Positions 431-46,967 are shown, counted from the first letter of the stretch. The stretch: 64,000 bases of DNA from an uncultured Gemmatimonadaceae bacterium (GCA_963781585.1 CAWAGQ010000006.1:384001-448000), one strand, 5' to 3'. Notes: generated by a model from the sequence alone, not told the origin. A program made the numbers and translations.

Positions 431-2353
431 ATGCACAAACTGCTTGCCTTCGCTGCCCCAGCCGTGCTCCTTGCCGCGACGGCCGGGGTGCACCGCGCCC
501 CCCGCACCACCGCGCCTAACGCCCCGGCGGCGATCGCGCCCAACGACAACCGCCTTCCCGCCGGCACCATGACCAGCGGCGTGTTGGAGGTTCACCTCGA
601 CGCCCGCCCGGGAGAGTGGCGCCCCTACGGCGGGAACGGCCCGCCGATCACGATCCTCGCCTTCGGCGAGATCGGAAAGTCGCTGCAGACGCCGGGTCCG
701 CTGATCCGGGTGAAGGCCGGAACCCGCGTTCACGCCACGATCACGAATTCGGCCATCGGTACGCTGGTGGTGCATGGACTGGCCGCGCGTCACCGGGTCG
801 TGATGGATACCCTCGTCGTCCCCGAGGGAGCGACGCGCGAGGTCACGTTCGTCGCCGCGGACGCCGGGACGTTCTTCTACTGGGGAACGACAACCGGCGT
901 GTCGTTCAGCGACCGGTACTTCGAGGATGTTCAACTGAATGGCGCCCTGATCGTCGACCCGGTGGGGGCGCCGCCGCGCCCCGATCGCGTCTTCGTGATT
1001 GCCTGGCACATTCCCCAGAAGGAGGCCAACGGGGAGCCCAACTTCACGAACGCGTTCTTCACATTCAACGGCCAGCCCTGGCCGTACACCGAGCGGCTGA
1101 CGTACAACCAGGGCGATTCGGTGCACTGGCGCTTCATCAACACCACCGCCGACGTGCATCCGCTGCACCTCCACGGCTTCTTCTTCCGTATCACCGCGCG
1201 CGGCGATGTGCAGCGCGATACGCTGTACTGGCCCGGACAGGAGCGAATGGCGGTCACGGAGTTGATGGACGAGGGCACCACGATGGACCTCTCGTGGTTC
1301 GCCGAGCGCCCGGGAGCGTGGATCTTCCATTGTCACCTCAACTGGCACGTGGTCCCGAACCCGGTGCTGGGGGCTGACATGGAGTCCGATAGCGCCCGCC
1401 TTCGCGAGTTGTTCGTGGCGCCGGACATGGGCGCGATGCACGACGGCCACGCCATGGGAAACCACGCCGAGACCGGCATGGGCGGCCTGGTGCTGGCGAT
1501 GAACATCAAGCCCTCGGCGACATGGCGGCCCTACACCGGGCCTCGCGAGCGGCTTCGCCTCTACATCCAGAGCGACTCGCAGCCCGGCGATACGGCGCGG
1601 CGGTTCGGATACGCCCTCGCCACGGGGAGCGAGATGCCGGCGCCTGACGCGATCACATGGCCCGGACCGCCCATCATTCTGCACAAGGGGCGCCCCACCA
1701 GCATCCGGGTCATCAACCGTGCGCCCGAGCCGTCACAGGTGCACTGGCACGGCCTCGAGATCGACAGCTACTACGACGGCGTGGCGGGGCTGAGCAGCAA
1801 CGCCGGCATGGTGTCGCCGATGATCATGCCGCGCGATTCGTTCGAGGTCACCGTGACCCCGCCGCGCGCCGGGAGCTTCATGTACCACACCCATATCAAC
1901 GACATGCGGCAGCAGAGCCACGGCCTGTACGGCCCCATCATCGTCCTCGACTCCGCCGAGACGTGGGACCCGCAGCACGACCTGATCTTCCAGACCGGCA
2001 CGGATCCCACGGACAGCCCGATCCTCAACGGAAGCACGTCGCCGCCCGCTCTGACGCTGCACGCGGGAACGCCGTATCGCATCCGGCTGATGAACATCTC
2101 GCTCGACGTGCCGTTCAACGAACTGTGGCTCACGAATTCGCTCGGTGGAGCAGTAGGGTGGATGCCGGTGGCCAAGGACGGCTTCGACCGGCCGACCTGG
2201 CAGCGCACGCCCGTGCTCTCGCGTCAGAGGGTGAGCATCGGCGAGACATACGATTTCCGCGTGACCTTTCCTGCGCCCGGTGAGTACGCAATGACAGGGC
2301 GTCGCGGCAGCGGGTTGGAGTATGCCCGGCAGGAGATCCACGTGGTGAAGTAG
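431..2353 (+). CDS. Secreted multicopper oxidase, four cupredoxin domains
   Basis: Signal peptide MHKLLAFAAPAVLLAA. Copper motifs HPLHLHG, WIFHCHLNWH, HAETGM, VHWHG, FMYHTH. Confidence 0.9.
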   Translation: MHKLLAFAAPAVLLAATAGVHRAPRTTAPNAPAAIAPNDNRLPAGTMTSGVLEVHLDARPGEWRPYGGNGPPITILAFGEIGKSLQTPGPLIRVKAGTRVHATITNSAIGTLVVHGLAARHRVVMDTLVVPEGATREVTFVAADAGTFFYWGTTTGVSFSDRYFEDVQLNGALIVDPVGAPPRPDRVFVIAWHIPQKEANGEPNFTNAFFTFNGQPWPYTERLTYNQGDSVHWRFINTTADVHPLHLHGFFFRITARGDVQRDTLYWPGQERMAVTELMDEGTTMDLSWFAERPGAWIFHCHLNWHVVPNPVLGADMESDSARLRELFVAPDMGAMHDGHAMGNHAETGMGGLVLAMNIKPSATWRPYTGPRERLRLYIQSDSQPGDTARRFGYALATGSEMPAPDAITWPGPPIILHKGRPTSIRVINRAPEPSQVHWHGLEIDSYYDGVAGLSSNAGMVSPMIMPRDSFEVTVTPPRAGSFMYHTHINDMRQQSHGLYGPIIVLDSAETWDPQHDLIFQTGTDPTDSPILNGSTSPPALTLHAGTPYRIRLMNISLDVPFNELWLTNSLGGAVGWMPVAKDGFDRPTWQRTPVLSRQRVSIGETYDFRVTFPAPGEYAMTGRRGSGLEYARQEIHVVK

Positions 2354-2454
2354 AGGCCGCGCCGGATGGATTGATCTGCCACAGACCGCTCGATCCGACT
2401 GATGTCGGCTGGCATCTGCGCGCTCGGTTTGACAACCGAGCGCTGATCGCTGAC

Positions 2455-5199
2455 CTACTCTTCCCGCAGCGCCACCACCGGTGCCACCCGCGAGGCACGC
2501 CACGCGGGCAGAAGGGCCGCGACCACGCCGCACGTCCCGAGCACCACGAGCGCGATGGTCAGTGACACCGGATCGGTGGTCCCGACACCGTGCAGCTGGT
2601 TCCGCAATAGCCGGGACGCTGCCAGCGCCAGCGGCACGCCCACCACCACCCCCACCGCCACCAGGCGCATCGCGTCGCCCAGCACCATGCCGATCACCGT
2701 GCCGCGTCCAGCGCCTAACGCCACACGCAGTCCGATCTCGCCGGTGCGCCGGGTGATGGCGTAGGTCATCACGCCGTACAATCCCACCGCCGCCAGCAGC
2801 AGTGCCATCACGCCGAACCCGCTGGCCAGCCTCGCCAACAGCCGTTCCTCGCGCACCGACTCCCGCATCAGCGCCGACAGCGGCTCGAGGTCGTCGATCG
2901 GGAGATCGTGGTCGAACTCCCCGACGGCTCGGCGTACCGCGACCGACAGCGCCGCCGGATCGCCGCGGGTACGGACCAGCAGCCGCAATGCCCCGGGGTC
3001 GCCGAACAGATGCTGCAGGTAGGGCACGTAGTAGCGCGCCACCGGCTCGCCAACGAGGGTGTGGTCCTTCACGTCGGCCACGAGCCCCACGATACGAGCG
3101 TGCGTGGAGTCGTTCACGCGAATAACCCGCCCTACCGGGTTCTCCCCCCTGAAATAGAACCGCGCAAATGTCTGGTTCACGAGCAGGACCGGCTGGGTGC
3201 CGGGCAGGTCCGTGTCGCTGAAATCGCGACCTGAAGCCAGGCGCGCCCCGATGGCATTCGCGTAACCCGGGCCCACCTCGTCGTATCGCACGATCGAATC
3301 GGTGCGCTCGTGCGCCACGAAGCCCGGCACGCCCAGATTGCTGGCCGATTCGCTGCCGCTGAAGATGCCGTTCGCCGAAAAGCTCACCGCCTCCACGCCG
3401 GGCACACGCGCGAGCCGCTCGCGCAGGTCGTGACTCACCTGCATCAACTTGTCACCGAGGTAGTTGCGCGAATAGACGTCCACGTCGGCAATCAGCAGGT
3501 GATCGCGATCGAGGCCGGTGTCGGATCCCTGCAGGTGCTGCAGGCTGCGCACCAGGAGCGCGGTGCCGACCAGCAGCACGAGCGACAGCGCCATCTGCGC
3601 CGAGATCAGCACCTTTCCTACCGGAATGCGCTGCCCGCGCGCGCCCAGCCCTCCGCCGCTCAGCGACCTGGCGCTGGCCCGCATCGCCGAGGCCAGGTCG
3701 ACCCGCGAGGCCCGCAGCGCGGGCGCCAGCGCGAACAGCGCCACCGCCAGCGCCGACAAGGACGCGGTAAACACCAGTACCGGCACGTCGAGTGCGACGT
3801 CGAGGGGAAGCGCGGTCCCGCCGTCGGCCACCAGCGCGAGCAAGAGCCGGCTTCCCCAACGCGCTACCACCAACCCGGCCGCGGCGCCGAGCAGGCCGAG
3901 CACCGCCCCTTCGGTCATCAGCTGACGCACCAGGCGGACGCGCCCGGCGCCGATCGCCATGCGCACGCTCATCTCCCGGCCTCGCGTCACCGCGCGCGCC
4001 AGCAGCAGGTTGGCGACATTTGCGCAGATGATGAGCAGCAGCACGCCCACTCCCACCGAGAGCGTGATGAGCGGCGCCTGGTAGGAGACCCGGACGTTCG
4101 ACAATCCCTTCGCTCCTGATGACACCCAGATGCGCATCTTGTCGATGCCCTCCGCCGTCGCGGCGCTGGTCGCCTGACGGATGAGCAGCTGTCGAATCCG
4201 CTGGGTGAGGCCAGCCTCGGCCTGGGCGAACGTCACCCCGGCCTTCCGGCGGCCAAGAAGCAGCAGCCAGTAGGCCTCGGTGTCGTTCAGCATCGGGCGG
4301 CCGGGATAGAGCACAGACTGCATGCTGATCGGCAGCCAGACATCGGTGGTGCGTCCGACGATCTCGCCGCTGAACCAGGGTGGCGCGACCCCGATGATCG
4401 TGAAGCGTGATCCGTTGATGAGTACGTTACGGCCGATCACGCGGTCGTCGCCCGAGAACCGCCGGATCCAGTAGCTGTGGCTGATCACGACCACCGGCGA
4501 GCCGCCGATCGTCTGATCCTCGCTCCCGTCGAAGATGCGGCCGCGCACCGCCGGCACACCAAGCACGCGAAAGTAGTTCCCCGACACGAACCGCCCGCGC
4601 GGGTGACCGGCTTCGGTGGCTCCCGAATCCGTCAACAGGTCCAGCCGGTCCATTCGCCCCGATGCCGCGAGCCCGGAGAGAAACTCGTGATCACGCGCCA
4701 GCTCGCGATAGCTCGGGTAGCTGAAGAGGTCCGACCGGGCGCTGGTGCTGAACGACATGCCGCCGGTGCGGGACGGATCGCCGAGCGCCACCAGCTCATC
4801 GGGCGCGGTCACCGGCAGCTTTCGCAGCAACACCGCGTTCACCAGCGTGAAGATTGCGGTGTTGGCCCCGATGCCTAACGCCAACGTCACGACGACCACC
4901 GCGGTGACCCCGGCATTGCGGCGCAGCATGCGCCAGGCGTAGGCCAGATCCTGGCGCAGGTCGGTCAGCAGATTCGCGCGATTCATCGCACGCTCCCGTT
5001 CCTGGTCCATGGCGATGCACGACCCACGCACCCGGTCCACGTCACCAAAGCGCTCACGGGCCCTGCGATACGCCTCATCGGGCGCCAAGCCCTGCGCGAT
5101 GAGCTTGCGCGCCCGCATCTCGATGTGGAACGACAACTCGTCGTCCACCTCGCGACCGATGTGGCCGTGCCCGAACCCGCGTCCCACCGCTCGCCGCAT
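2455..5199 (-). CDS. Duplicated orphan ABC permease (ADOP/MacB-FtsX type) #1
   Basis: EVDDELSFHIEMR prefix, LALGIGANTAIF, ANLLLARA, YGVMTYAITRRTGEIGLRVALGA, C-terminal PVVALREE. Confidence 0.93.
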   Translation of the reverse strand: MRRAVGRGFGHGHIGREVDDELSFHIEMRARKLIAQGLAPDEAYRRARERFGDVDRVRGSCIAMDQERERAMNRANLLTDLRQDLAYAWRMLRRNAGVTAVVVVTLALGIGANTAIFTLVNAVLLRKLPVTAPDELVALGDPSRTGGMSFSTSARSDLFSYPSYRELARDHEFLSGLAASGRMDRLDLLTDSGATEAGHPRGRFVSGNYFRVLGVPAVRGRIFDGSEDQTIGGSPVVVISHSYWIRRFSGDDRVIGRNVLINGSRFTIIGVAPPWFSGEIVGRTTDVWLPISMQSVLYPGRPMLNDTEAYWLLLLGRRKAGVTFAQAEAGLTQRIRQLLIRQATSAATAEGIDKMRIWVSSGAKGLSNVRVSYQAPLITLSVGVGVLLLIICANVANLLLARAVTRGREMSVRMAIGAGRVRLVRQLMTEGAVLGLLGAAAGLVVARWGSRLLLALVADGGTALPLDVALDVPVLVFTASLSALAVALFALAPALRASRVDLASAMRASARSLSGGGLGARGQRIPVGKVLISAQMALSLVLLVGTALLVRSLQHLQGSDTGLDRDHLLIADVDVYSRNYLGDKLMQVSHDLRERLARVPGVEAVSFSANGIFSGSESASNLGVPGFVAHERTDSIVRYDEVGPGYANAIGARLASGRDFSDTDLPGTQPVLLVNQTFARFYFRGENPVGRVIRVNDSTHARIVGLVADVKDHTLVGEPVARYYVPYLQHLFGDPGALRLLVRTRGDPAALSVAVRRAVGEFDHDLPIDDLEPLSALMRESVREERLLARLASGFGVMALLLAAVGLYGVMTYAITRRTGEIGLRVALGAGRGTVIGMVLGDAMRLVAVGVVVGVPLALAASRLLRNQLHGVGTTDPVSLTIALVVLGTCGVVAALLPAWRASRVAPVVALREE

Positions 5200-5202
5200 G
5201 GA

Positions 5203-5550
5203 TCAGGCAGGAACCGGCGACGGCGCGGCGAGCGCCTTGGTAACAGCGCGGACGTATCGCTCCCAACTCGAGACCTCGGACCTCAGCTGCTGACGGCCGG
5301 TGCGCGTCAACTGGTAGTACTTCGCCTTGCGGTTGTTCTCGGAATACCCCCAGTCGCCGGTGAGCCACCCCCTGCGTTCCAGCCGATGGAGCGCGGTGTA
5401 CAGGGGACCTTCCTCCACCAGCAGCTCCTCGTCGGTCACCGACCCGATCCACTCCGCCACCGCGTACCCGTGGCGCGGGCCCCAGGACAGCGCCTTGAGG
5501 ATGAGGACGTCGAGCGTGCCGCGGAGCAGACCGCCGTCGGGATCGAGCAT
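5203..5550 (-). CDS. PadR-family transcriptional regulator #1
   Basis: LLRGTLDVLILKAL, HGYAV, LYTALHRLE, SENNRKAKYYQLT. Directly upstream of the permease. Confidence 0.95.
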   Translation of the reverse strand: MLDPDGGLLRGTLDVLILKALSWGPRHGYAVAEWIGSVTDEELLVEEGPLYTALHRLERRGWLTGDWGYSENNRKAKYYQLTRTGRQQLRSEVSSWERYVRAVTKALAAPSPVPA

Positions 5551-5556
5551 ATCGGT

Positions 5557-5579
5557 TTCCCCTCTGAGTTAGAGGGGAA
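5557..5579. promoter_or_regulatory. Putative PadR #1 operator
   Basis: Perfect inverted repeat TTCCCCTCT-N5-AGAGGGGAA overlapping the padR ribosome-binding region. A degenerate copy lies at about 5592-5611. Confidence 0.7.
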
Positions 5580-9983: not shown

Positions 9984-11603
9984 TCATGCGGAGCTCCCGG
10001 GCGGTCTGTCTGACGCGGAGGGGGGGGAGGGGGAGGAGGACGGTGTTGCCGCCGGAAGGTGAAGCGGCGAGACCGGGAGCAGGTGCCGCTGCACCTTGCC
10101 TAACGCGTTGCGGGGCAGGGCATCCACCCGCACGAACGCGCGCGGGGTCTTGAACGACGCGAGCTGGCGCGAGCACGCATCGCGCGCGACCGCCTCGTCG
10201 AACTCCGGACCGGCCACCACGCAGGCAACCGGCACCTCGCCCCGGACCGGATCCGGCACGCCCACGACGGCCGCCTCGAGAACGCCCGGGACGTCCGCGA
10301 GCACATCCTCGATCTCGCGCGGATACACGTTGAAGCCGCCGGTGATGATCAGGTCGCTGGACCGTCCGCGCAGCGTGACGTACCCGTCGGCCGATCGCTC
10401 GGCCATGTCGCCGGTGCGGAACCAGCCGTCGGTCGTGAACGCGGCGAGGGTGGCGGCCGGATTCTTCCAGTACCCGGAGAAGACGTTGGGACCGCGCACC
10501 TGGAATTCTCCGACCGTATCGTGCGACACCGGACGGCCGACATCATCGACGATGCGGGCGGAAACGCCAGGCAGCGGCATGCCGACCGTACCGGCGCGCC
10601 GTGCTCCCGCACAGGGATTGCTCGTGTTCATGAGCGTCTCGCTCATGCCGTAGCGCTCGAGAATGGTGTGCCCGTACCGGTCGCGAAACGCGTCGAACAC
10701 GTGGGTGGGGAGGGGCGCCGACCCCGACACGAACAAACGCATGTGGCGGCCGATGCTGCGGGCCGCGTCGGCCGGGAGGTCGAGCAGGCGCAGGTAGATC
10801 GTCGGCACGCCGAAGAAGAGGGTCGGCCGGAACTCGGCGAACAGTGCGGCTGCGGTCTGGTGCGCAAAGCGCTCCACCAGCCGCATCCGGCATCCCGTTG
10901 CCAGCCAGCAGCAGAGGCCGTTGGCCAGCCCGTGCACGTGAAAGAGCGGCAGGACGGCCAGGTAGCGATCCTCACTCGTTATGCGCCAGCATGCCACGAG
11001 GCTGGCGGTGTTGGCGAGGAAGTTGTTGTGCGAGAGCACGGCGCCCTTCGAGCGGCCGGTGGTGCCCGACGTGTAGACGATGGCGACGGGGTCGTCTCCG
11101 TCCAGCGGCAGTCGGATCCGGCCGGGCTCCCGCGGCGCGTGTTCCCCCGATCGGTCGCCACTCGTTGGTTCCGTCGCTCCGGACTCCGATGCCCGCCAGG
11201 CGTCCGCCTCACGCGCCAGCTCCTCGATGTCCACGACCGGCGTGCCGGCTGGGAAGAGCGGCAGGTGGTGGTAGCTCGTGATCACCATCGCGGGTGAAGC
11301 GTCGCCGACGATGTGCGTCAGTTCGCGTTCGCGGTAGAGCACGTTTACGGGCACGAAGATGATGCCCAGTCGCACGCAGGCGACGAACAGATCGATGTAC
11401 TCCGCGCGGTTGGCCAGGTGTACGCAGAGCCGGTCGCCCCGAATCAGGCCGCGAGCCGCGAGGGTACGCGCCATGCGATTGGCGCGGGCGTCGACCTCCG
11501 CGAAGGTCAGCGACGTCGCGCCCCCGCCAGGGGCGTCGACGTCCAGCGCGGTCGCGTCAGGTCGCGCCGCCAGCGACAGATCGAACAGGTCCGCGAGCTG
11601 CAT
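9984..11603 (-). CDS. Acyl-CoA synthetase (malonyl-CoA synthetase MatB-like)
   Basis: YTSGTTGRSKG, LPLFHVHGL, ERYGMSET, GWFRTGD, PRNALGK. Confidence 0.9.
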   Translation of the reverse strand: MQLADLFDLSLAARPDATALDVDAPGGGATSLTFAEVDARANRMARTLAARGLIRGDRLCVHLANRAEYIDLFVACVRLGIIFVPVNVLYRERELTHIVGDASPAMVITSYHHLPLFPAGTPVVDIEELAREADAWRASESGATEPTSGDRSGEHAPREPGRIRLPLDGDDPVAIVYTSGTTGRSKGAVLSHNNFLANTASLVACWRITSEDRYLAVLPLFHVHGLANGLCCWLATGCRMRLVERFAHQTAAALFAEFRPTLFFGVPTIYLRLLDLPADAARSIGRHMRLFVSGSAPLPTHVFDAFRDRYGHTILERYGMSETLMNTSNPCAGARRAGTVGMPLPGVSARIVDDVGRPVSHDTVGEFQVRGPNVFSGYWKNPAATLAAFTTDGWFRTGDMAERSADGYVTLRGRSSDLIITGGFNVYPREIEDVLADVPGVLEAAVVGVPDPVRGEVPVACVVAGPEFDEAVARDACSRQLASFKTPRAFVRVDALPRNALGKVQRHLLPVSPLHLPAATPSSSPSPPSASDRPPGSSA

Positions 11604-11710
11604 GTGCGCCGGATTGTAGCTCGGCGACACGGTGATCCGCGAGAGGCTGCTGAGACCGGTTCGTCCTGCGCGCCGACCACCTCGGCGCCGCGGTTTCGGT
11701 CGGCGGACAC

Positions 11711-11729
11711 GCGGGCTAGATTAGCCCGC
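11711..11729. promoter_or_regulatory. Inverted repeat between divergent genes (possible operator)
   Basis: GCGGGCTA-GAT-TAGCCCGC, perfect 8-bp arms, between the synthetase and kinase starts. Confidence 0.35.
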
Positions 11730-11771
11730 CCGCGCTTCACGTCCCGATGATGGAGGGCGCGCAACAGGTCA

Positions 11772-15062: not shown

Positions 15063-15162
15063 GCCAAACCAGCAAGGAGCCTGCCGCCTAACGTCTTTTC
15101 AGTCAAGCGGCGCCGGCCCGGGGAGACGGTCAACCGGTCGACGTGGACGCGCAGACAGGGCT

Positions 15163-16419: not shown

Positions 16420-16607
16420 CGCGCCCTCCTGGTTACCTGCGCGCGACTGTCGCACGCACCCGTGTCAGAATGGTGCGCGGAGGGTCACCTGTCTGTCGGC
16501 GGTATGCAGGCGCGGCGCCGGGTACTTCCCGACCAGGCCATCACGGTTTCACGCACCACAAGAAGCTGGACGACTGCGGCACGCACCCGGGAAACCGGGC
16601 GCCTCCA

Positions 16608-18293: not shown

Positions 18294-18480
18294 GGTCCCC
18301 TCCCGTTCGCGGCCTAACGGTTCATCCAGGAGCCGCAACAGTCCGGTTCCTCGTCCAGCGCCCTGGCACGGCCGAGAACGATCGCGGTGACAGGCACGGC
18401 GAACGATGCACGACGCGGGGTGAGACCGCAACGGGTGATCAACAGACCTGTCTGCTCCTGCACGCAGGCGATCGTCGCGC

Positions 18481-23247: not shown

Positions 23248-25422
23248 TTACTTCGTCCCCGAGAGCTGCGTCGTCCGGATTGTCGTCCCCTCGGTGCACT
23301 GGTTGCCGGCAATCGCGGCCGCCGACGTCGCGTCCAGAGACCACTCAATCGTCTGCCCGGTGGGCGGCGCCCAGCTGTTGTTCCAACCCGCGACGCCGCT
23401 GAAATCGGGCGTGGCGAGCGTGTTGGTCGCGCCGCTGAGAACGGACCCCGACGCGCCGACCGTCACCTGGTGCGCGTCACCGATGTCGTTGTACGTCAGA
23501 CTGGCGAACGGCGCGACCAGATCGGTCGGCGCGTTGAACATGACTTGTGCCATGGTGTACGCCGCGCCCGACGTTGTCACCGAGACGCCGCTGAGCAGGG
23601 CCGGGAGCGTGATGCTTCGGTCGCCAAAGGTGTGGAAGCTCTCCGCGTCCGCGCGATACGACGTGTTGGTGGACGCCTGGACGAACAATCCGTGATAGTC
23701 AGTCGCCGTCTGCCTGGCCGCCGGGAAGCCGTAGGCGGTGAACGTCGCGGGCAGCGACGTCGCCGACCAGAGCGTCGCCAGGTGGCACGCGGCATCAGTG
23801 AGGTAGAGCAAACCGGCGCTCAGGGTTTCGCCGCCACCCGGATTGGTGATCGTCATGGTCGCCGGCATGGGTGCGAACGAGTTCGCCCCGTTGAAGTCGA
23901 GCGTGCCGAGCGAGAGTCCGTTCGACGCCATGATGCCGCGCTGCGCGTAGGCGCGGTCGGTGGCCGAAAGGGCGCCGATGCTCTGGCGATACCCTACCAG
24001 ATCCCACGTTCCGTCGGGAACATGGTTGAACGTCACGTTGGGTGCGAAGGAGAACGCTGTCGCGGGGACGCCGCCGTAGCCGAACGAGGCGAAGTCCGTG
24101 AGGCCGAGGCCCGCGACGGTGCCGGTGACCGTGTTCGACCCGGTCGTCACGCTGGCGCAGAAGACGATGGTGTTGTTGGTAAGGTCGGCCTTGCTGCCGT
24201 ACTGCACAGAGATCTGGAACGATCCCGCGCTCCCCGTGACGTACGCGTAGGCGCCAGTCGCCGAGTTCAGCGTGTACTGGTAAACGTGATTGGTGCCGGT
24301 GAGCATCGTCCACGCCCCGTTGCCGTCCTGTGCCGCCAGCCAGATCGGCTGCTGATCCGGATCGCACGCCGAGAAATCCGCCGTCACGAGATTCCCGCCG
24401 CCGCCGCCGCCCGTGATGGTGAGCCCGACGTTGGTCTGCGCCACGGTGGATCCCGACGTGCCGGTGGCGGTGACTGTGAACGTTCCGGGCGTCGCGCTGC
24501 CGGACGCGGTCAGGGTAAGTGAGGTGGAGGTGCCGGACGTGCTGGTCGGGTCGAACGTCGCCGTCACACCGCCGGGCAGGCCCGAGGCGCTGAAGGCAAT
24601 CACGCCGCTGAAGCCGCCCGTTCGCGTGACGGTGATCGTCGTCGCCGCGTGCGCGCCCTGCGCGATGCTGAGGGACGTGGGCAGCGCCGCGAGGGTGAAG
24701 CCCGCTGGCGCCGTCACCGTGAGGACGATCGTCGTCGTGGCGTCTGAGACGCCGGTGCCGGAGCCTTTCACGGTGAGGTTGTAGGTATTGGCGGCGACCG
24801 AGGCGCCCACGGTGACGGTGGCGGTCGAGGTCGTACCCGTCACGTCCGCCGGATTGAACGACACCGTTACGCCCGTGGGCAGGTCCCTGGCCGTGAGGTT
24901 GACGGTCCCGGTGTAGTTGCTGCGCGAAATGGTGATGGTCACCGGGCCACTCCCGGAGGGCGCGAGCGATACGCTTCCGGCAGCGAGGCTGATGCTCGCG
25001 GTGCCGGTGGCGGTCACGGTCAGGCTGAAGGTCGCGGTGGCGTCGGTGACGCCGCTCCCCTTGACGCGAATCGTGAGCGGATACGAGCCGGTCGCGACGG
25101 CGTCGCCGATGGTCAGGGTGATGGTGGCGGACGTGGAGGTGCCGTCGGAACTGGTCTGGACGTTCGAGGCCGAGCCGCTGGCCCCGGTGGGCGCCCCTTC
25201 GACCGAAAAGGTCAGGGTGCCGGTGTATCCACCACCGCGCGCCACGGAGACGCTGAACTGCGAGGAACTCCCCTGGGCGATGGAGCCGGAAGAGGAGCCG
25301 AGGTGTAGCGTGATCGTGTAATTGGTGCCGGTGACCTTGTCGCCGCCGCCCGAACTGCAGCCCTGGACTCCGAACACCACAGCGCCTAACGCCAACGCAC
25401 AACCCGACAGACGGCGAGACAT
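23248..25422 (-). CDS. Ser/Thr-rich surface lipoprotein with three Ig-like repeats and an unknown C-terminal domain
   Basis: Lipobox VQGC. Three ~100-aa repeats (R.GG(Y/F).G...(L/A)P.G...), a G6 linker, then a ~390-aa beta-rich domain. Confidence 0.85.
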   Translation of the reverse strand: MSRRLSGCALALGAVVFGVQGCSSGGGDKVTGTNYTITLHLGSSSGSIAQGSSSQFSVSVARGGGYTGTLTFSVEGAPTGASGSASNVQTSSDGTSTSATITLTIGDAVATGSYPLTIRVKGSGVTDATATFSLTVTATGTASISLAAGSVSLAPSGSGPVTITISRSNYTGTVNLTARDLPTGVTVSFNPADVTGTTSTATVTVGASVAANTYNLTVKGSGTGVSDATTTIVLTVTAPAGFTLAALPTSLSIAQGAHAATTITVTRTGGFSGVIAFSASGLPGGVTATFDPTSTSGTSTSLTLTASGSATPGTFTVTATGTSGSTVAQTNVGLTITGGGGGGNLVTADFSACDPDQQPIWLAAQDGNGAWTMLTGTNHVYQYTLNSATGAYAYVTGSAGSFQISVQYGSKADLTNNTIVFCASVTTGSNTVTGTVAGLGLTDFASFGYGGVPATAFSFAPNVTFNHVPDGTWDLVGYRQSIGALSATDRAYAQRGIMASNGLSLGTLDFNGANSFAPMPATMTITNPGGGETLSAGLLYLTDAACHLATLWSATSLPATFTAYGFPAARQTATDYHGLFVQASTNTSYRADAESFHTFGDRSITLPALLSGVSVTTSGAAYTMAQVMFNAPTDLVAPFASLTYNDIGDAHQVTVGASGSVLSGATNTLATPDFSGVAGWNNSWAPPTGQTIEWSLDATSAAAIAGNQCTEGTTIRTTQLSGTK

Positions 25423-26477: not shown

Positions 26478-27716
26478 CTAACGCACCACTCTCGCATTGT
26501 GGACGCCCGGAGCCAGAAACACCCGGATCGCGTGATCTCCCAGGCCTACCTCGGCCACATCGGCCACGCCGTCGCCGTCGAAGTCGCGTACGCCAAGTGA
26601 CGCCGGTGCCGGACCCGACGGTACGCTCACCGGATCTTCGAACGAGCCGTCACCCCGGCCATACAGCAGAGACAGGGTGCCGTGCTCCAGGTTCGCCGCA
26701 ACGGCGTCGAGCCTCCCGTCTCCGTTCAGGTCGCCTAACGCCACGTCGACGGGTGAGGGCAGTGGGATCACCACGGCGTCGCTGAACCCCGAGGCCGCCC
26801 CGAGTCGGACCACGAGCTGGTTGGTGAAGCCGTAACACGCGATCACCAGATCGTCGCGGCCGTCGGCATTGAGATCGCCGACCGCCAACGCGATGGTGCC
26901 GTCGGTGCCCGGGTTGGATGACACTGGAGGAACGATGGTCGGTGCACCAAACTCGCCCGTGCCGCGCCCGTGAAACACGAGGGCGGCGGCCTGCGGATCG
27001 CCTACGGCAACCGCCACATCCGCCAGGCCGTCGCCGTCGAAGTCACCCGCCGCGACGTCGACGGTCGTGAAGTACGGAGTTCCCATCTCCCACACCCGCC
27101 GCAGTTCCCCGGTGGCGGAGCCCAGGTAGGCCGTGACATACACCGGCGCGCCCGAGCCGTCGTGGACCGCGACGACGTCGTCGAACCTGTCGCCGTTCAG
27201 GTCTGCGACGACAACGCGACTCCCGTGATTGCGGAGGGAATACCGCACTGGCGCGCCGAACTGGGCGCCGCCCAGGCCGAGGCGAACGTTGAGCGCGTTG
27301 TCGTGGCCGATCACCAGCAAGTCGGGAATTCCGTCGCCGTTCACATCGCCGACCGCGGCCTGACGAGCGTCGCTCTCGGCGGGGAGCGCGATCACCTGCC
27401 CGAAGCCGCTCACATGGTCGCCGGGCAGAATCCGGATCGAGAGATCGCTCCGCGCGATTGCGATCAAGTCTGGGCGCGCGTCGCCGACCACGTTCAGGGC
27501 GGTCAGGTTGACCAGGGTGCTGGCGCCGACGTCGTAGACACCCGCTGGTTGCGGTAGAGGATGCGGACCGGGAGATGCCGGATCGCGCGCGCATGCCACC
27601 AGAGCGAGCGAGACCAGGGCGCCGAGCGAGGCCAGCCCTTGTGTTCCGCGACCCCTCACTGTGCCCGCATGCTCCGCCACGAACCCCTCCCCAGTTTGGT
27701 ACGGGTCGCCGGCCAT
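26478..27716 (-). CDS. FG-GAP/VCBS-repeat lipoprotein
   Basis: Lipobox LVAC. Six to seven (G/A)D(L/F/V)(N/D)GDG..D repeats. Start uncertain. Confidence 0.9.
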   Translation of the reverse strand: MAGDPYQTGEGFVAEHAGTVRGRGTQGLASLGALVSLALVACARDPASPGPHPLPQPAGVYDVGASTLVNLTALNVVGDARPDLIAIARSDLSIRILPGDHVSGFGQVIALPAESDARQAAVGDVNGDGIPDLLVIGHDNALNVRLGLGGAQFGAPVRYSLRNHGSRVVVADLNGDRFDDVVAVHDGSGAPVYVTAYLGSATGELRRVWEMGTPYFTTVDVAAGDFDGDGLADVAVAVGDPQAAALVFHGRGTGEFGAPTIVPPVSSNPGTDGTIALAVGDLNADGRDDLVIACYGFTNQLVVRLGAASGFSDAVVIPLPSPVDVALGDLNGDGRLDAVAANLEHGTLSLLYGRGDGSFEDPVSVPSGPAPASLGVRDFDGDGVADVAEVGLGDHAIRVFLAPGVHNARVVR

Positions 27717-30501: not shown

Positions 30502-30507
30502 TTGCCC

Positions 30508-30638: not shown

Positions 30639-30668
30639 GCCTAACGCCATTCCGATCTGCTGCGGGGA
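30639..30668 (-). repeat. attC-like right half-site
   Basis: Minus strand CCCCGCAGCAGATCGGAATGGC-GTTAGGC downstream of the DUF4019 gene. No matching RYYYAAC left end found. Confidence 0.45.
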
Positions 30669-30763
30669 GCCCTCATGCGACTCTCGCCGCAGTCGCGCGG
30701 CGCCCGCCGCGCGCACTGAAGAGCGCCGACTACGGCACCAGCTGCCTGGGGCGCCGGTCCCTG

Positions 30764-31117
30764 TCACCGAATGAAATAACCAGAGACGCGCCAGGTGCCG
30801 TCAACGTCGCGCATCGGTGTGACCGTCTCGACGGCGGAGCGTTTGTGTTCAAACTGCGTGTCGAACTGGAAGACAACGTACTCCCCGTCAGGAGCGCCCG
30901 GGAGCTCGGTCGCTGGGCGCGCTTCCCTGAGCGTGCGCACCACCAGTGCTCCGAGGGGTTCGCGTGCGGCGGCGAGGGAACGGGCCCACTGGGTCTCCGG
31001 GACGGCCCGCCGAAAGAGCGAGGCGGCAGCCTCCCACGTGCCGGCCGCATCGGCGGCGTCGGCCCGGGCGAGCCAGTCACGCGCGGCCTGCTCGGCCTCA
31101 GGATCGTATTCAGCCAT
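30764..31117 (-). CDS. DUF4019-family protein
   Basis: AARDWLARAD, REPLG, LPGAPDGEYVVFQFDTQF, ETVTPM, WRVSGYFIR. Confidence 0.88.
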   Translation of the reverse strand: MAEYDPEAEQAARDWLARADAADAAGTWEAAASLFRRAVPETQWARSLAAAREPLGALVVRTLREARPATELPGAPDGEYVVFQFDTQFEHKRSAVETVTPMRDVDGTWRVSGYFIR

Positions 31118-31327
31118 TGCTGTCTCCGCTCTTCACATGTGAAGCGGGGGGCCCGCGCCCGCCACCTCACCTCACTACGGCAGATCCCTTCTCGTGGCCA
31201 TTGCCTTCGCGATCAGCGCGCCGTGGACACGCACCTCGACATCGGTGAGCGCGTCAGCCACGATGCCTTCCTTCGACGGCGGTGGATCATGTCCGGAGTG
31301 GAATCGCGCGTCGGGCCCGTCAGCCGG

Positions 31328-33228: not shown

Positions 33229-34404
33229 TCACCGCAGCAGGTCGAGCGCCGCCTCCTGCATCCGCCGCTGCGCTTCGGTTGCCGGGGTCGCGGTGTTGGT
33301 CGTGTTGAATACCGCGATCACCGAGAGCGTGCTCACCGGATCGAAGTAGTAGAACGACCGGAAGCCGGCCTGGCTTCCGGTATGGCCCAGAATGCGGTGG
33401 CCGTCGCGGTCGAGCACGAAGAACGCGAGCCCCATCCACTGGTGCGGTGCGGCCTCGTAGCTCTGCGACATCGGCTTCCCGGGTCGCCACATCTCCTCGA
33501 GACTCGACCGCGAGAGCACCACGTCGTACCGGGCCCGGGACATCCCTGGCAGGACGGCCCCGGTCAGGAAGGCCGTATACTTCACCAGATCGTTCACCGG
33601 TGCGTTCCAGGCGCCGTTAGGCGATGTGATCCCCGGATCGAAGTCGGCGCCGTTGTCCACCACCTGCGGCCGGCCCGCCGAATCCTTCCGGACGTAGTAG
33701 TTGTGTGACCGCTGGCCGGCCAGAAAATACGGCGTGCCGCGAAAATAGCTGCGGCTGAGGTCGAGCGGGGCAAAGATGTTCTTCTGGACGTACGCATCCC
33801 ACGGGTCGCCGGTGATCTGCTCGATGACGCGTGCCAGATAGATGAAGGCAGGGTTCGAATAGCTGTACCGGGATCCCGGCGGGAAGAGCAGTTCCTGGTA
33901 CGGCATCATGGCCACGAGCTGGTTCCAGGTCGTGGGCTCGAACGGTTCCCACGGCTTGCCATTGCCCCACGGCCAGGTGGGATTCTGGAATCCCGCGGTG
34001 TGCGACAGCAGCATGCGGATGGTGATGCTGTCGATCATGTTGTAGGGGTCGTGAATCTGCCGCAGCTCCGGCACCCAGCGCACGATCCGGTCGTCGAGCG
34101 AGAGCTTCCCGCGATCGCGAAGCTGCATGATCGAGATCGCAGTGAGCGACTTGGTGATCGAACCCCAGTGGAAGATCGTCTGGGAGTCGACGGCCGCGTG
34201 TGTCGCGCGGTCCGCGTCGCCGGTGTCGTAGCGGCCGATGACACGGCCGTTTTTCATGAGGACCACGCTGGCGCCCACCACCCTGTCGCTGTCGACGTAG
34301 GCCTGGAAGGTGTGCGTGAACGCGGCCCAGGTCGGCGGGGCCTGCGCGATGCCGATGGCGGGTGCGAGCGCGGCGAGCGCGGCGGCGCGATGGAGGGAGG
34401 TCAT
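33229..34404 (-). CDS. Secreted serine hydrolase, beta-lactamase family
   Basis: Signal peptide, GSITKS, LLSHTAG, YSYSN, GHTG. Confidence 0.93.
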   Translation of the reverse strand: MTSLHRAAALAALAPAIGIAQAPPTWAAFTHTFQAYVDSDRVVGASVVLMKNGRVIGRYDTGDADRATHAAVDSQTIFHWGSITKSLTAISIMQLRDRGKLSLDDRIVRWVPELRQIHDPYNMIDSITIRMLLSHTAGFQNPTWPWGNGKPWEPFEPTTWNQLVAMMPYQELLFPPGSRYSYSNPAFIYLARVIEQITGDPWDAYVQKNIFAPLDLSRSYFRGTPYFLAGQRSHNYYVRKDSAGRPQVVDNGADFDPGITSPNGAWNAPVNDLVKYTAFLTGAVLPGMSRARYDVVLSRSSLEEMWRPGKPMSQSYEAAPHQWMGLAFFVLDRDGHRILGHTGSQAGFRSFYYFDPVSTLSVIAVFNTTNTATPATEAQRRMQEAALDLLR

Positions 34405-34431
34405 GGGAACCGACGGCGGGGGAGCACGCGG

Positions 34432-37639: not shown

Positions 37640-41173
<3,534 letters not shown>

Positions 41174-42804: not shown

Positions 42805-42808
42805 CACG

Positions 42809-43141
42809 GTGAGCCAGAGCAAGACCGATCTCCTGCAGGGCACGCTCGATCTCATCGTCCTCCGAATGCTCCGTGGACAGTCCGCGAACGGATGGGAGCT
42901 GACGCAATCCATCCAGGCCGTCACCAAAGGCGTTCTTGACATCAATTACGGGTCCATCTACCCTGCGCTCCGGCGTCTCGAGGCTCGTGGACTCGTCAAA
43001 GGCCGTTGGGCCACGTCCGAGAACAACCGGCGTGCGCGATTCTACGAGCTCACCGCGTCCGGCCGGAAGCAGCTCGAAACGGAGCGGCAGTCGTGGGAGC
43101 GCTTCGCGCATGCCCTCGGCCTCATCCTCGACCAGACCTGA
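42809..43141 (+). CDS. PadR-family transcriptional regulator #2
   Basis: DLLQGTLDLIVL, GSIYPALRRLE, SENNRRARFYELT. Confidence 0.95.
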   Translation: MSQSKTDLLQGTLDLIVLRMLRGQSANGWELTQSIQAVTKGVLDINYGSIYPALRRLEARGLVKGRWATSENNRRARFYELTASGRKQLETERQSWERFAHALGLILDQT

Positions 43142-43146
43142 CGATC

Positions 43147-45795
43147 GTGCTGCGGGAGTTCGCCGCCCGCGCGCGGGCATTCCTGGCCCGGCGCCAGCGC
43201 GAAGCGGAGCTGCACCTGGAGCTGCAGGACCACCTGGAGCGGGAGATCGCGCGCAACCTCGACCGCGGTCTTCCGCCTGACGAGGCTCGCCGTGCCGCGC
43301 ACCTCGCCATCGGCAACCTGACGATCCATCACGAGGACGGTCGCGTCGCGACGACGGGCGTCTGGTTCGAGCAACTCTCGCAGGACGTCCGGTACGCCTC
43401 GCGCATGCTCCGCCGGAACCCGGCCTTCGCGCTCGTCGCCATCCTCTCGCTCGGCTTCGGCATCGGCGCCACGACGACGATGTTCAGCACGATCGACGCT
43501 CTCGACTTCCGCCCACTCCCGTTCCACGACCCGGATCGCCTCGTGTGGCTGGCCGAGGTGGCGCCGCCGACCGACGACATCTGCCCGGGATGCGGATCGC
43601 GAACGTCGCCGCCGACGGCGATCGACTGGCTCGCTCAGGCCCGATCGTACGCCGCTGTCGGAGTCATGTCGGAGTCGGCCGCTCCGTGGGTCCACGACGA
43701 CGCGATCGAGCTGCTCTCCGTGAACCAGGTCACGCCGGGGTTCTTCCGGCTCCTCGGGGTCGCGCTCGAGGTCGGTCGCGACTTCCTGCCTGGCGACACG
43801 CTGCCCGGCGCTCCCCCGGTCGTCGTCGCGACGCACGGCTTCTGGCGACAACGGCTCGCCGGCGAGGTGGCGGCCGTCGGGCGTCCCCTGCCGTCCTCCC
43901 TCGATGCGGGAACGGACGCGAGGCTCCGCGGCGCAATCGTCGTCGGCGTGCTGCCGGAAACCTTCCGCTTCGAATTGTCGCGTGATCGCCAGCTCTGGAC
44001 GCCGCTCCGGCTGCCGGCGACGTCGCCACGCACAGCGCGTTCGGTGACGGTGATCGCGCGCCTTCGGCCCGACGCGAGCATCCCCGCGGCCAACGCCGAG
44101 TTGCAGGTGCTGTTCGCGCGACTCGTCTCCACGTATCCATCACCGTACCAGTCGTGGGGCGCGCGCGTCGAGCCGCTGCGGGCGCGACTCGGCTGGGGCG
44201 CCGGCGGCAACCGCGGGCTGCTGCTCGGCATCACCGCGCTGGTGCTGCTCATTGCCGTCATGAATGTCGCGGGCCTGCTGGCGGGGCGCGCGTCGATGCG
44301 ACGACAGGAGTTCGCCATGCGGAGTGCATTCGGCGCGAATCGGCGACGGCTGCTCCGCCAGCTCCTCGTCGAGGGAACGAGCGTCGGGCTTGGCGGCGGA
44401 CTGGTTGGCGCGCTGATCGCGCTGTGGGGCATCCGCTTTTCGGCGCGGTGGTTCGGCATCGACAGCGGCGTCGCGATCATGGACCTTCGAGTCCTGGCGT
44501 TCGCGCTCGTGCTGTCGATCAGCGTCGGGATCGTCACGGCGTTCGGTCCCGCATTCCGCATCTCCCGGGTCGACCTGATCGGCGACCTCCGGGGCAAGGC
44601 TACGGCCTCGACTGACCGCCAAACCGGCATGGCATCGAGCGTGCTGATCATCACGCAGATCGCGGTCGGCCTCGTGCTCCTCACCGCTGCCGCCTCGCTG
44701 AGTGCCGACTTCCTGACGCTGCGATACACCGATCTCGGGTTCGACCCGTCGGGCCTCTATGAGACGTCCCTCTCCGGTCCGCGGCCGGCCGGTGGCGATG
44801 CCACTCCGTGGCGCGACGTGGCGGAGGCCGCGCGTGAGCGCGTCGCGTCCATCCCGGGGGTGCGCGCGGCGACGCTCCGCTACATTTCGGCGATGCACCC
44901 CGAAATCGTGCGCCCTGCCGCTGGCGGCGGCGTCGCGTCGGGGACGCCGGTGCTGACCGCGATCGACCCGGCGTATTTCGAGACCTGGGGGATGCGGCTC
45001 CGGCGCGGTCGCGCGTTCGGCCCCGGCGACGGCGCGGGCGCGGCGCGGGTTGCGATCGTCAACCGATCCGCCGCGGCCCGGTTCTGGCCGGGTCAGGACC
45101 CGCTGGGCCTCGTGGTCTTTGTCGGGGACAGCGGGGCACCAGGTGAATTGCTCACCGTGATCGGCGTGAGCGAGGACGCGGAGCGTCTCGAGATGGCGGA
45201 CCGTCACTGGTCGGTGGTCTACCGGCCGCTCGCGCAGGCGACGCTGTGGCACACCGCCGCGGTGCTCCAGGTCCGCATCGACGGTCGGGCCGATCGCGCG
45301 GCGCTGCTCGCGCTCGCGCAGTCACGCGTCCGGGAGGTCCTGCAGCGGCCCATCGATCCGTTCCGTTCGGTCGAGGCCCAGCTCGACGAGCGCCTGCGGC
45401 CGCGCCGGTTGAACGCCATCGCGCTCGACCTGTTCGCGGCATTCGGGCTCGCGCTCGCGGCGATGGGGATATACGGTGCGATCGCCGCTGCCGTGACACG
45501 GCGGACCCGCGAGATCGGTGTGCGCATTGCGTTAGGCGCAGCGCCCGGCGGAGTGTTGCGCCTTGTCGTCCGGCGCGGGCTCGCGCTGGCGGTGACCGGC
45601 GTGGCACTCGGATTGCTCGGCGCCGCCGCGATGTCGCACGTTCTGCGCTCCCTCGTCATCGGCACCGACGTCCTCGACCCGCGGGTGTTCGCGGCCGCGG
45701 CCGCGGTGATGATCCTGACGGCCGTGTCCGCCGCGTTGCTGCCGGCGCGTCGCGTGCTGCGCGTGGATCCCGTGGATGCGTTGCGCGCGGACTGA
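43147..45795 (+). CDS. Duplicated orphan ABC permease #2
   Basis: ELHLELQDHLE prefix, LGFGIGATTTMF, RRTREIGVRIALGA, VDPVDALRAD. In-frame GTG 6 nt after the padR stop. Confidence 0.92.
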   Translation: MLREFAARARAFLARRQREAELHLELQDHLEREIARNLDRGLPPDEARRAAHLAIGNLTIHHEDGRVATTGVWFEQLSQDVRYASRMLRRNPAFALVAILSLGFGIGATTTMFSTIDALDFRPLPFHDPDRLVWLAEVAPPTDDICPGCGSRTSPPTAIDWLAQARSYAAVGVMSESAAPWVHDDAIELLSVNQVTPGFFRLLGVALEVGRDFLPGDTLPGAPPVVVATHGFWRQRLAGEVAAVGRPLPSSLDAGTDARLRGAIVVGVLPETFRFELSRDRQLWTPLRLPATSPRTARSVTVIARLRPDASIPAANAELQVLFARLVSTYPSPYQSWGARVEPLRARLGWGAGGNRGLLLGITALVLLIAVMNVAGLLAGRASMRRQEFAMRSAFGANRRRLLRQLLVEGTSVGLGGGLVGALIALWGIRFSARWFGIDSGVAIMDLRVLAFALVLSISVGIVTAFGPAFRISRVDLIGDLRGKATASTDRQTGMASSVLIITQIAVGLVLLTAAASLSADFLTLRYTDLGFDPSGLYETSLSGPRPAGGDATPWRDVAEAARERVASIPGVRAATLRYISAMHPEIVRPAAGGGVASGTPVLTAIDPAYFETWGMRLRRGRAFGPGDGAGAARVAIVNRSAAARFWPGQDPLGLVVFVGDSGAPGELLTVIGVSEDAERLEMADRHWSVVYRPLAQATLWHTAAVLQVRIDGRADRAALLALAQSRVREVLQRPIDPFRSVEAQLDERLRPRRLNAIALDLFAAFGLALAAMGIYGAIAAAVTRRTREIGVRIALGAAPGGVLRLVVRRGLALAVTGVALGLLGAAAMSHVLRSLVIGTDVLDPRVFAAAAAVMILTAVSAALLPARRVLRVDPVDALRAD

Positions 45796-45913
45796 TTGTT
45801 CTTGCGGAGGACGTCAGTGTCCAACCGTTGCGTTGGCGACACGCGGCTTTGACGCGCGAGAAAACGGACGAAATCGTGAACGCTCTGAGTCGAGATTCTC
45901 GCGTGTTCACAAG

Positions 45914-46276
45914 TCAGCATCCTGCCGTGGGGCCCCTCGCTGTCCGGCGACCGAACCGCGCCGGTCTTGACGATGCGCTCGACTGGACCAGACTTAGTCC
46001 GATGAAAACCTGCAACATCCACGAAGCCACGAGGTCGGCCTGCGAGAGCGACAGGCAGGGCTGGTCGTTGAACGGCACCTTCGGGACCACCGGCGTTTTG
46101 GGCTTGCTGAGAGCGGCTAGGATCGAATCAGTTACCACGCTGTCCGAATCGACCGCGGCCTGCATGGCGGTGGCCTTCTGTGGGGACTTCGCGGTCGTGC
46201 TGCAACCCGTCGCGAGCCACAGGGCGGTGGCCGTGCTGGCGGTGAGCGCCGTGCGTGCGACTTGTAGGATCCACAT
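45914..46276 (-). pseudogene. Probably truncated lipoprotein (DUF3558-like start)
   Basis: GGAGG RBS, lipobox ATGC, QPCLSLSQAD, then unrelated-looking sequence after about 46035. Confidence 0.45.
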
Positions 46277-46967
46277 GGGGGCCTCCTGGCGCGTGTGGGT
46301 GCGGCCTAACGACGCTCGCCCCGTGGCCTTGCGGTGCCGCCGGGTGGTCCCCGCAGCGGCACACGGGGTCTCCTGAACATACGGTCAGCGTCGGCAGCCG
46401 AAAGGCGAGCAGACGCGCCAACCGCGGAGTGAAGCAGTACCAGACTGGTCCTGTCGGTCTGATTCTGCGCTAACCTCGCGTCCAGGGAGGCGGCGAGCCA
46501 GAAGGCTGGGACGAGACCTCGTCCCGAGCGCGGTCGAGGCGACCGTCAGGAGCCGGCGGCGATCCGGGCGCAGTTCGATGCGCCGATCGAGACCGACGTG
46601 CCGGCATTGGAGGTGAGGCTACGGAAGGACGGGATCGATTCGGTGGTGCGGTAGCCAGTCCCTACTCTGATGAAGGAACCAGCGCGCTGCCGGGTGGGGA
46701 CGCGCGTGGTCGTTGGCGTCGATGTGAGGCGACGCGTCGACGCAATTCGGGCAGCCGAGTTGCCAGCGGAGTCGTACGAATACGCAATCAGGCATTCCGG
46801 GCCAGCGTTCTGAAGTGCGCGGAACTGATGCGAGGTAGTCGAGGCGTCCCACTTCCGTGATACATGTACACGATGGCAGGCATCCTCCTGTGGAGCGACC
46901 GAATGCGTGTGCGTCCGCGATGTTCTACCGCGGCGTGCCCCGCAGTCGAACAGGAATTAGAGCGCTC

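Follow-up and report, generated by a model that had tools for sequence, protein, structure and literature searches.

An octamer kept against codon preference in a Gemmatimonadota lineage: a candidate word for DNA uptake or recombination

The closest described counterparts of the word reported here are the uptake signal sequences (USS) of Pasteurellaceae and the DNA uptake sequences (DUS) of Neisseriaceae, nonpalindromic words of 9–12 bp that occur roughly once per 1.1–1.3 kb with even spacing. Known uptake sequences are accompanied by many singly mismatched copies, and inverted pairs acting as terminators are typical of the Neisseria DUS. Chi, exemplified by GCTGGTGG of Escherichia coli, is an asymmetric, overrepresented, lineage-specific octamer built from common codons. 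Other candidates for comparison are the polar words known as FtsK-orienting polar sequences (KOPS), architecture-imparting sequences (AIMS), and SpoIIIE recognition sequences (SRS), and the attC sites of integrons (RYYYAAC ... GTTRRRY). Finally, HIP1 (GCGATCGC) of cyanobacteria is a hyperabundant, evolutionarily conserved octamer with quasi-periodic spacing within coding regions and a palindrome read by methyltransferases; its function, long unexplained, is now being linked to transformation, according to a 2026 preprint (10.64898/2026.06.24.733823). Here, we analyze the octamer GCCTAACG (reverse complement, CGTTAGGC) in a 64,000-nt stretch of DNA from an uncultured Gemmatimonadaceae bacterium (GCA_963781585.1 CAWAGQ010000006.1:384001-448000), the whole of which is called the window below. 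The word is imposed at the DNA level against codon preference. We tentatively favor the reading that, in the form Y-GCCTAAC-G, it may be a genome-wide recognition word for DNA uptake or recombination in one Gemmatimonadota lineage, spread by molecular drive.

An exact-match search returned 13 copies of GCCTAACG in the window, 11 on the + strand and 2 on the - strand (Table 1), which bears out the number, the places, and the 11:2 ratio given in a preliminary description of this DNA. Dinucleotide-preserving shuffles of the window (n = 100) yielded a mean of 1.04 and a maximum of 5 copies, with 13 or more reached in 0 of 100, and a third-order Markov model predicted 0.40; GCCTAACG is the top octamer of the window, with a z score of about 18–20. 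The enrichment also exceeded a codon-aware null, in which synonymous codons were shuffled within each of 31 open reading frames (ORFs) while the TTA count of each gene was kept. The 500 shuffles averaged 0.44 coding copies and at most gave 4, so that none reached the 10 observed. A lack of enrichment over such a null would have refuted the preliminary description, and this is not what we found. The ORFs had been called by a codon log-odds score trained on Pfam-supported frames.

The word has a sharp boundary. Of the 27 CTAA tetramers in the window, whose GC content is 64–69%, 13 lie inside GCCTAACG, and most single-mismatch variants occur 0–3 times; 11 of the 13 copies have C or T at position -1. 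The 25-nt flanks of the copies have nothing in common; thus, the word is not part of a longer repeat, and a longer repeat or mobile element as its carrier was ruled out on the same ground. No two copies lie closer than 774 bp, and the 12 gaps are more even than random (coefficient of variation [CV], 0.51; p = 0.011). The last 17.7 kb of the window (46312..64000) hold no copy despite 10 sites encoding Ala, Pro, Ser, or Thr followed by Leu-Gly ([APST]-L-G), which has a probability of 0.032 under uniform placement. Site usage there does not differ significantly from that in the rest of the window (0/10 versus 8/35; Fisher p of about 0.17, by hand). This copy-free end could be newer DNA or a product of chance; its genes are ordinary ones (a histidine kinase, a hydrolase, a permease, a TonB-type barrel, and an SdrD-like protein).

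Table 1. Exact copies of GCCTAACG in the window and the settings in which they lie
Copy	Position	Strand	Gene or setting	Frame, codon, or peptide
1	514..521	+	multicopper-oxidase gene 368-2350 (+), Cu-oxidase_3 + Cu-oxidase_2	xxG-CCT-AAC-G (Pro-Asn)
2	2713..2720	+	MacB_PCD/FtsX duplicated permease gene 2458-5199 (-)	codon 829 TTA, R-V-A-L-G-A, conserved FtsX motif
3	4873..4880	+	permease gene 2458-5199 (-)	codon 109 TTA, T-L-A-L-G-I-G, N-terminal membrane helix
4	10098..10105	+	AMP-binding enzyme gene 9987-11720 (-)	codon 540 TTA, R-N-A-L-G-K-V
5	15086..15093	+	intergenic, between convergent genes 11751-14552 (+) and 15166-16464 (-); no positive-scoring ORF overlaps	
6	18312..18319	+	19 nt 5' of the probable ATG (18293, after GGGAGGGG) of a - gene ending at 16611	open frame P-L-G
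7	25384..25391	+	gene 23251-25512 (-), no Pfam family, coding score 148	codon 42 TTA, A-L-A-L-G-A-V
8	26733..26740	+	FG-GAP repeat protein gene 26481-27749 (-)	codon 338 TTA, D-V-A-L-G-D-L
9	30639..30646	+	stretch of ~29.75-31.3 kb without an ORF of convincing coding signature	
10	33615..33622	-	beta-lactamase-family gene 33232-34431 (-)	xxG-CCT-AAC-G (Pro-Asn)
11	39527..39534	+	GH2 beta-galactosidase gene 37643-41173 (-)	codon 548 TTA, R-F-T-L-G-D-K
12	45530..45537	-	second duplicated permease gene 42940-45792 (+)	codon 865 TTA, R-I-A-L-G-A-A; homologous to copy 2 position
13	46304..46311	+	stretch of 45.8-47.5 kb without an ORF of positive coding score	

No codon of the window is rarer than TTA, with 7 uses among 14,671 codons, compared with 608 for CTG and 559 for CTC. 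In confident genes, we found the seven copies read as xCG-TTA-GGC (copies 2, 3, 4, 7, 8, 11, and 12) and the two read as CCT-AAC (copies 1 and 10) that had been described before; copies 5, 9, and 13 lie where no ORF scores positively. The fraction of TTA codons inside the word, a check suggested in the preliminary description, is high: the word holds 8 of the 11 TTA triplets that are in frame in the called ORFs of the window and 250 of 323 on a plasmid of Gemmatirosa kalamazoonensis that we analyze below. Of the 11 in the window, 3 lie upstream of likely starts. The window writes 6 of its 17 A-L-G tripeptides as GCG-TTA-GGC and, by our own count from the table of sites, 8 of its 29 xCG-Leu-GGC sites with TTA. 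No tRNA gene is present in the 64 kb, not even one for the TTA-reading tRNA that these genomes must retain to translate the TTA codons of the word.

Homologous genes show what these positions look like where the word is absent. The window holds three duplicated permeases with MacB_PCD and FtsX domains, of about 900 amino acids each, and a search of genome contigs with their alignment gave 79 loci. The best two of these come from metagenome-assembled genomes (MAGs) of Gemmatimonadota and Gemmatimonadaceae, with 59% and 54% identity, and the remainder mostly from Acidobacteriota. At the A-L-G sites of copies 2, 3, and 12, the homologues in three other Gemmatimonadota loci (L001, L002, and L047) have CTC, CTG, or CTT; for copy 3, the codon is CTC in L001, CTG in L002, and CTC in L047. 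The same three codons fill the R-x-A-L-G-A position that copies 2 and 12 share in two paralogous permeases, in L001, in L002, and in four L047 homologues. Since these word-free relatives use other Leu codons at homologous positions, the word was derived in this lineage by synonymous changes.

The word is tolerated where it is synonymous, as xCG-TTA-GGC for [APST]-L-G and as CCT-AAC for Pro-Asn, and it also occurs outside genes. The earlier argument for a signal at the DNA level, built on two reading frames, is strengthened by the unrelated flanks, the copies outside genes, the survival of the enrichment under the codon-aware null, and the finding of four frames in Gemmatirosa. A by-product of coding was ruled out by the codon shuffle and by the homologues with other Leu codons. 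A hidden-stop ("ambush") function was ruled out as well, by reasoning from the sequence: the stop triplet falls in different shifted frames in the two main frames.

The same word was found in Gemmatirosa kalamazoonensis KBS708. A megablast search of window positions 1-25000 against PLSDB returned one 100-bp match, located on plasmid 2 of this species, and tblastn placed permease homologues on both of its megaplasmids. In two 50-kb samples, GCCTAACG was the top octamer, with 42 and 36 copies on both strands, the latter number from a piece of plasmid 1. It is again the top octamer on the whole of plasmid 2 (1,040,503 bp; 72.8% GC), where we counted 701 copies (one per 1,484 bp), whereas a third-order Markov model with the word masked predicts about 2.4. 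The word is equally frequent on both strands of this complete replicon (366 + and 335 -). Its edges are sharply defined: G precedes CCTAACG in 701 of 705 cases, and GCCTAAC is followed by G 701 times, by A 85 times, by C 12 times, and by T 8 times. At position -1, C (46%) and T (38%) exceed G (13%) and A (3%), a preference seen in every frame class. Given this flank profile, the full word is Y-GCCTAAC-G.

Our gene calls on plasmid 2 are our own and crude, comprising 486 ORFs over 74% of the replicon, where the genome paper reports 798 genes (PMC3974934). With these calls, 250 copies fall in the frame x-L-G, 134 in P-N, 35 in L-T, and 34 in V-R, and 248 lie outside called ORFs. Of the 323 in-frame TTA codons, 293 stand in G-TTA-GGC. 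Occupancy of the available sites is high: TTA fills 250 of 777 xCG-Leu-GGC sites (32%), with TTG at 79 more, and CCT fills 135 of 241 G-CCN-AAC-G sites (56%) while being nearly unused in other contexts. The only one-off variants enriched are transition neighbors, namely, GCCCAACG (150 versus 29 expected), GCCTGACG (155 versus 50), GCCTAGCG (13 versus 1.7), and GCCTAACA (85 versus 1). Moreover, 11 of 50 R-x-A-L-G-A sites carry the intermediate codon TTG. These neighbors and intermediates indicate that point substitution, driven by a strong directional force, is how the word spreads.

Two further contexts were considered for the copies on plasmid 2 and set aside. A hairpin-loop or terminator context was rejected, as the association of copies outside called genes with stems of at least 6 bp is weak (6.9% versus 3.6%). 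The copy-free gaps are not mobile DNA, judging by their ordinary content: the eight largest hold 28 ORFs, which are metabolic, regulatory, and receptor genes, and one of these gaps includes ParA/ParB.

Copies of the word on plasmid 2 keep apart from each other. The gaps vary less in length than random placement would give (CV, 0.908 versus 0.997 ± 0.037; p = 0.0055), and only 63 are shorter than 200 bp, compared with 88 expected. When occupancy was permuted among the 1,015 available coding sites with exact flanks, 30 adjacent occupied copies lay less than 300 bp apart against 59.8 ± 5.9 expected, and 0 of 3,000 permutations gave so low a number. The depletion holds within and between frame classes (17 versus 30.1 for LG-LG pairs, 12 versus 32.9 for PN-PN, and 12 versus 21.9 for LG-PN); the translational cost of a single tRNA was therefore ruled out, given that the LG-PN and PN-PN pairs are depleted too. 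It also holds for both relative orientations, with 29 pairs versus 63.0 in the same orientation (p = 0.0003) and 12 versus 21.9 in the opposite one (p = 0.023), and it fades beyond 300–500 bp. Thus, once a copy is present, in one orientation or the other, a second is less likely to be found within about 300–500 bp. A copy that "covers" a few hundred base pairs whichever way it points suggests a reader acting on a segment of DNA regardless of direction, and this orientation-blind depletion argues against a mutational writer working site by site and against one-directional signals.

The strand skew that had drawn attention in the window does not appear to be an intrinsic property of the word. 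The 11:2 distribution has a plain binomial p of 0.022 and a one-sided p of 0.042 once it is conditioned on the codable sites in + and - genes. In the frame used most often, CGTTAGGC stands on the sense strand of the gene, and - genes hold 29 of the 45 [APST]-L-G sites. GC skew at 4-fold degenerate sites shows no difference between + and - genes and so gives no basis for naming a leading strand in the window. Plasmid 2 offers a better view. Its ParA-like and ParB-like genes, at ~647.5–649.5 kb, lie in a 9-kb word-free stretch (641644-650816; L094), and the GC skew flips there from -0.038 to +0.036 between adjacent 50-kb bins, which places the replication and partition origin probably near 650 kb. 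Relative to this inferred origin, 315 of the 701 copies fall on the presumed leading strand, by our own sum of bins.

No strand bias beyond gene direction remains on plasmid 2. The sense class of coding copies is independent of the gene strand in both of its parts (Fisher p = 0.69 and 0.24), and once gene direction is removed, the excursion of the cumulative residual, 32.7, is like the 31.9 ± 9.6 of 5,000 permutations (p = 0.40). Sets of 13 consecutive copies with at least 11 on one strand make up 48 of 701 sliding sets (6.8%), compared with 2.25% under a binomial model; gene orientation at the scale of operons thus makes local skews like that of the window three times commoner. The 11:2 ratio is mostly gene direction plus chance. 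Of the comparison with replichore and gene direction that the preliminary description had in view, then, plasmid 2 leaves no residual, while the window retains a marginal one after codable sites are allowed for.

Among other lineages, the word is scarce. The three other Gemmatimonadota loci contain 0 copies in 67,917 bp, and the 76 remaining loci contain 16 in 1,416,525 bp, in agreement with the lineage specificity proposed earlier. These counts support a lineage-restricted word, present in the window organism and in Gemmatirosa and patchy in the phylum. We found no paper linking the word or its 7-mers with Gemmatimonadota in the searchable full text, which leaves most subscription journals outside; literature on skewed octamers, on uptake sequences and competence in this phylum, and on Gemmatirosa was covered as well.

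Of the systems listed in the preliminary description, an uptake-sequence-like element fits these observations best, whereas Chi, KOPS, and attC are unsupported and HIP1 matches in abundance only. Like USS and DUS, GCCTAACG is a short, exact, nonpalindromic word hundreds of times over expectation. It occurs about once per 1.5 kb in Gemmatirosa, equally on both strands and with spacing more even than random; in genes, it sits in frames for common peptides, with weaker preferences in its flanks. Related genera share it while others lack it, and its mutational neighbors are enriched. Under the uptake reading, a protein would recognize the word in a stretch of DNA whichever way it points, one copy per segment being enough. 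DNA carrying the word would be preferentially taken up or recombined, by analogy with USS and DUS, and biased uptake followed by homologous replacement would spread the word by molecular drive until most of the cheap sites were filled. The recognition step, its receptor, and competence itself are all putative. That the word is a new signal for sequence-specific DNA uptake or self-recognition in Gemmatimonadota is possible, though we would not lean on it.

Several points weigh against this reading. At 8–9 bp, the word is shorter than USS and DUS. Only transition-type one-off variants are enriched, and transversion types are not. Inverted pairs of the kind that form DUS terminators are not seen among copies within 200 bp on plasmid 2 (27 inverted versus 36 direct; convergent in 11 of 63). 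The density in the window, 1 per 4.9 kb, is below that in Gemmatirosa, and with the marginal skew that remains there (p = 0.042), the word may have a strand-dependent role in the window organism. The short-range depletion rests on 486 crude ORF calls where 798 genes are reported, and genes with tandem domains could inflate it. Reports of natural competence in Gemmatimonadota, and of uptake or transformation assays there, were absent from the listings of our literature search. A further difference from USS and DUS is that the core of the word is AT in genomes of 67–73% GC and that it uses the rarest codon.

Alternatively, the word may be a direction-blind landmark for a DNA-binding or repair factor that has nothing to do with uptake, such as a chromosome organizer or a site of strand discrimination or nicking, kept by ordinary selection at about one per segment, much like HIP1 before a function was suggested for it. 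We regard this as rather unlikely, although the strand symmetry, even spacing, short-range depletion, sharp profile, and presence on all sampled replicons would all follow, and DNA uptake is not required by any of the data. At hundreds of sites, selection would need to gain more from the word than it loses by the rarest codon, a patchy presence in Gemmatimonadota would be unusual for core chromosome maintenance, and no candidate protein is known for such a landmark. The published single-molecule real-time (SMRT) methylome of KBS708 lists only RGATCY, ATGCAC, and CCAGN7TCA as N6-methyladenine (m6A) motifs, with 5-methylcytosine (5mC) not assessed there (PMC3974934); since the word is missing from that list, it is not an m6A site, which also counts against a landmark. 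The methylome check proposed in the preliminary description is thus answered for m6A only. The proposed likeness to HIP1 holds for abundance, as well as for quasi-periodic spacing and location within coding regions, and fails on symmetry: HIP1 is a palindrome read by methyltransferases (10.64898/2026.06.24.733823), whereas GCCTAACG and its reverse complement CGTTAGGC are distinct, and the three m6A motifs do not include it.

A Chi-like hotspot or self-marker, at which RecBCD or AddAB would switch from degradation to RecA loading and for whose density resident replicons would be selected, is unlikely. Its appeal lies in an exact, asymmetric, lineage-specific octamer found on large secondary replicons, at a density in the window resembling that of Chi in E. 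coli. Diminishing returns for neighbors in the same orientation would be expected (29 versus 63.0), and the 11:2 majority of the window lies on the strand with positive cumulative GC skew. Yet the case made earlier for Chi or KOPS rested on skew, and plasmid 2 has neither a leading-strand bias (315/701) nor anything left after gene direction; in the window, 4-fold-site GC skew identifies no leading strand. Copies in opposite orientations also deplete each other (12 versus 21.9; p = 0.023), as if the orientations could substitute for one another, whereas Chi is one-directional. Finally, the roughly 300-fold enrichment and the saturation of 32–56% of sites, achieved with the rarest codon, go far beyond known Chi.

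A mutational or short-patch-repair bias acting at each site by itself, for instance, a 5mC methyltransferase with a Vsr-like partner that converts near matches, would leave the word without function. The enriched transition neighbors and the visible path from CTG through TTG to TTA are what such a process would leave behind, and 5mC would escape the SMRT methylome. Nevertheless, we consider it improbable. It predicts independent sites, whereas copies deplete each other within 300–500 bp in both orientations; Vsr-type repair depletes the transition neighbor, whereas here the neighbors are 3- to 85-fold enriched; and the changes needed run from GC to AT, against a composition of 67–73% GC.

A polar sequence of the KOPS or AIMS type, orienting FtsK toward dif, is very improbable and close to refuted. 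The word is an octamer like these, and 11 of its 13 copies in the window lie on one strand, but that skew is marginal after codable sites (p = 0.042) and not intrinsic, plasmid 2 has 366:335 without a switch, and, unlike the known KOPS and SRS motifs (PMC3384302), the word is not rich in purines or G. A recombinase target or a translation-level TTA signal is not supported and carries next to no weight with us: GTTAGGC does fit GTTRRRY and GCCTAAC fits RYYYAAC, the letter match noted earlier, and TTA is in frame in 7 of 9 copies in confident genes, but the copies are single, at conserved codons of housekeeping-type genes, with no paired inverse-core and core sites 50–150 bp apart and no integrase domain among 150 window ORFs of at least 170 amino acids (E value of ≤1e-6), and four frames, both orientations, and copies outside genes mean that a signal at the codon level cannot explain the word.

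The gene content of the window was read from the same Pfam scan, made on stop-to-stop frames. Besides the three permeases, which we take to resemble the type called "ADOP," it includes a CarboxypepD_reg/TonB-type outer-membrane barrel and Sortilin/BNR, FG-GAP, GH2, and multicopper-oxidase genes. An ORF of about 120 amino acids precedes two of the permeases: 5206-5568 (-) with 2458-5199 (-) and 50120-50473 (+) with 50460-53120 (+). The first of these small ORFs, presumably PadR-like, is 80% and 79% identical to the ORF in the same place in L001 and L002, and the arrangement is predicted to be a conserved regulator-permease pair. The regions 29750-31300 and 45800-47500 contain no ORF of positive coding score, the second holding only an ADH_N fragment (46839-47441); gene decay, or genes whose composition is atypical, may lie behind this. 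The domains DUF1254 and DUF1214, which as a rule share a single protein, occupy two overlapping frames of the same strand, 53214-53915 (-) and 53801-54568 (-), which may represent a frameshifted gene.

Other overrepresented words were seen along the way. Three palindromic octamers exceed expectation in the window, AACGCGTT (12 versus 1.9), ATCCGGAT (12 versus 2.2), and GGAATTCC (6 versus 0.9); plasmid 2 has 48, 24, and none, respectively. On plasmid 2, GGACTGAA occurs 76 times against 5.8 expected, and intergenic elements consist of 11-bp tandem units resembling GGACTGAAGAA (e.g., 44152-44247, 63191-63288, and 81323-81341; L082-L083), the first two being inverted arrays that each start after tccacgtacg. 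In L047, a MAG of Gemmatimonadales, arrays of the heptamer CCCTACA at 267-295, 17285-17348, and 20496-20557, two of them inverted, look like the same kind of element with a different unit. "Dialect" words of other Gemmatimonadota were also sought and rejected: L002 has no such word, and those that rank first in L001 and L047 prove to be local repeats, either tandem or clustered. In an 18-kb locus of a Terriglobus MAG (L061), GATGCCGA has 17 copies against 1.8 expected, 16 of them on one strand and with unrelated flanks. It reads as common codons (GGC-ATC, opposite sense) and so may be codon driven; it could also be a polar word.

If the uptake reading is true, a clade of this poorly cultured phylum would practice natural transformation with a word-specific receptor, and the drive would suffice to put the rarest codon at between a third and a half of all synonymous sites. 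A recent gain or loss of the recognition system would then follow from the patchy distribution, and the receptor could be found by phylogenetic profiling. Most words resembling uptake signals have been described in two families of proteobacteria, and HIP1 of cyanobacteria has lately been argued to be a further one (10.64898/2026.06.24.733823). With a third case, independent and asymmetric, the origin and spread of such words could be studied in a clean comparative system, in a GC-rich soil phylum with a cultured representative whose genome is finished (Gemmatirosa kalamazoonensis KBS708). Because the word is sharp and its cost visible (TTA and CCT), the force behind it would be measurable site by site. 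The word could also serve as a marker to distinguish resident from recently acquired DNA and to recognize members of the clade among metagenomic bins. Finally, it accounts for nearly all TTA codons here, which matters wherever TTA is read as a regulatory codon in GC-rich bacteria.

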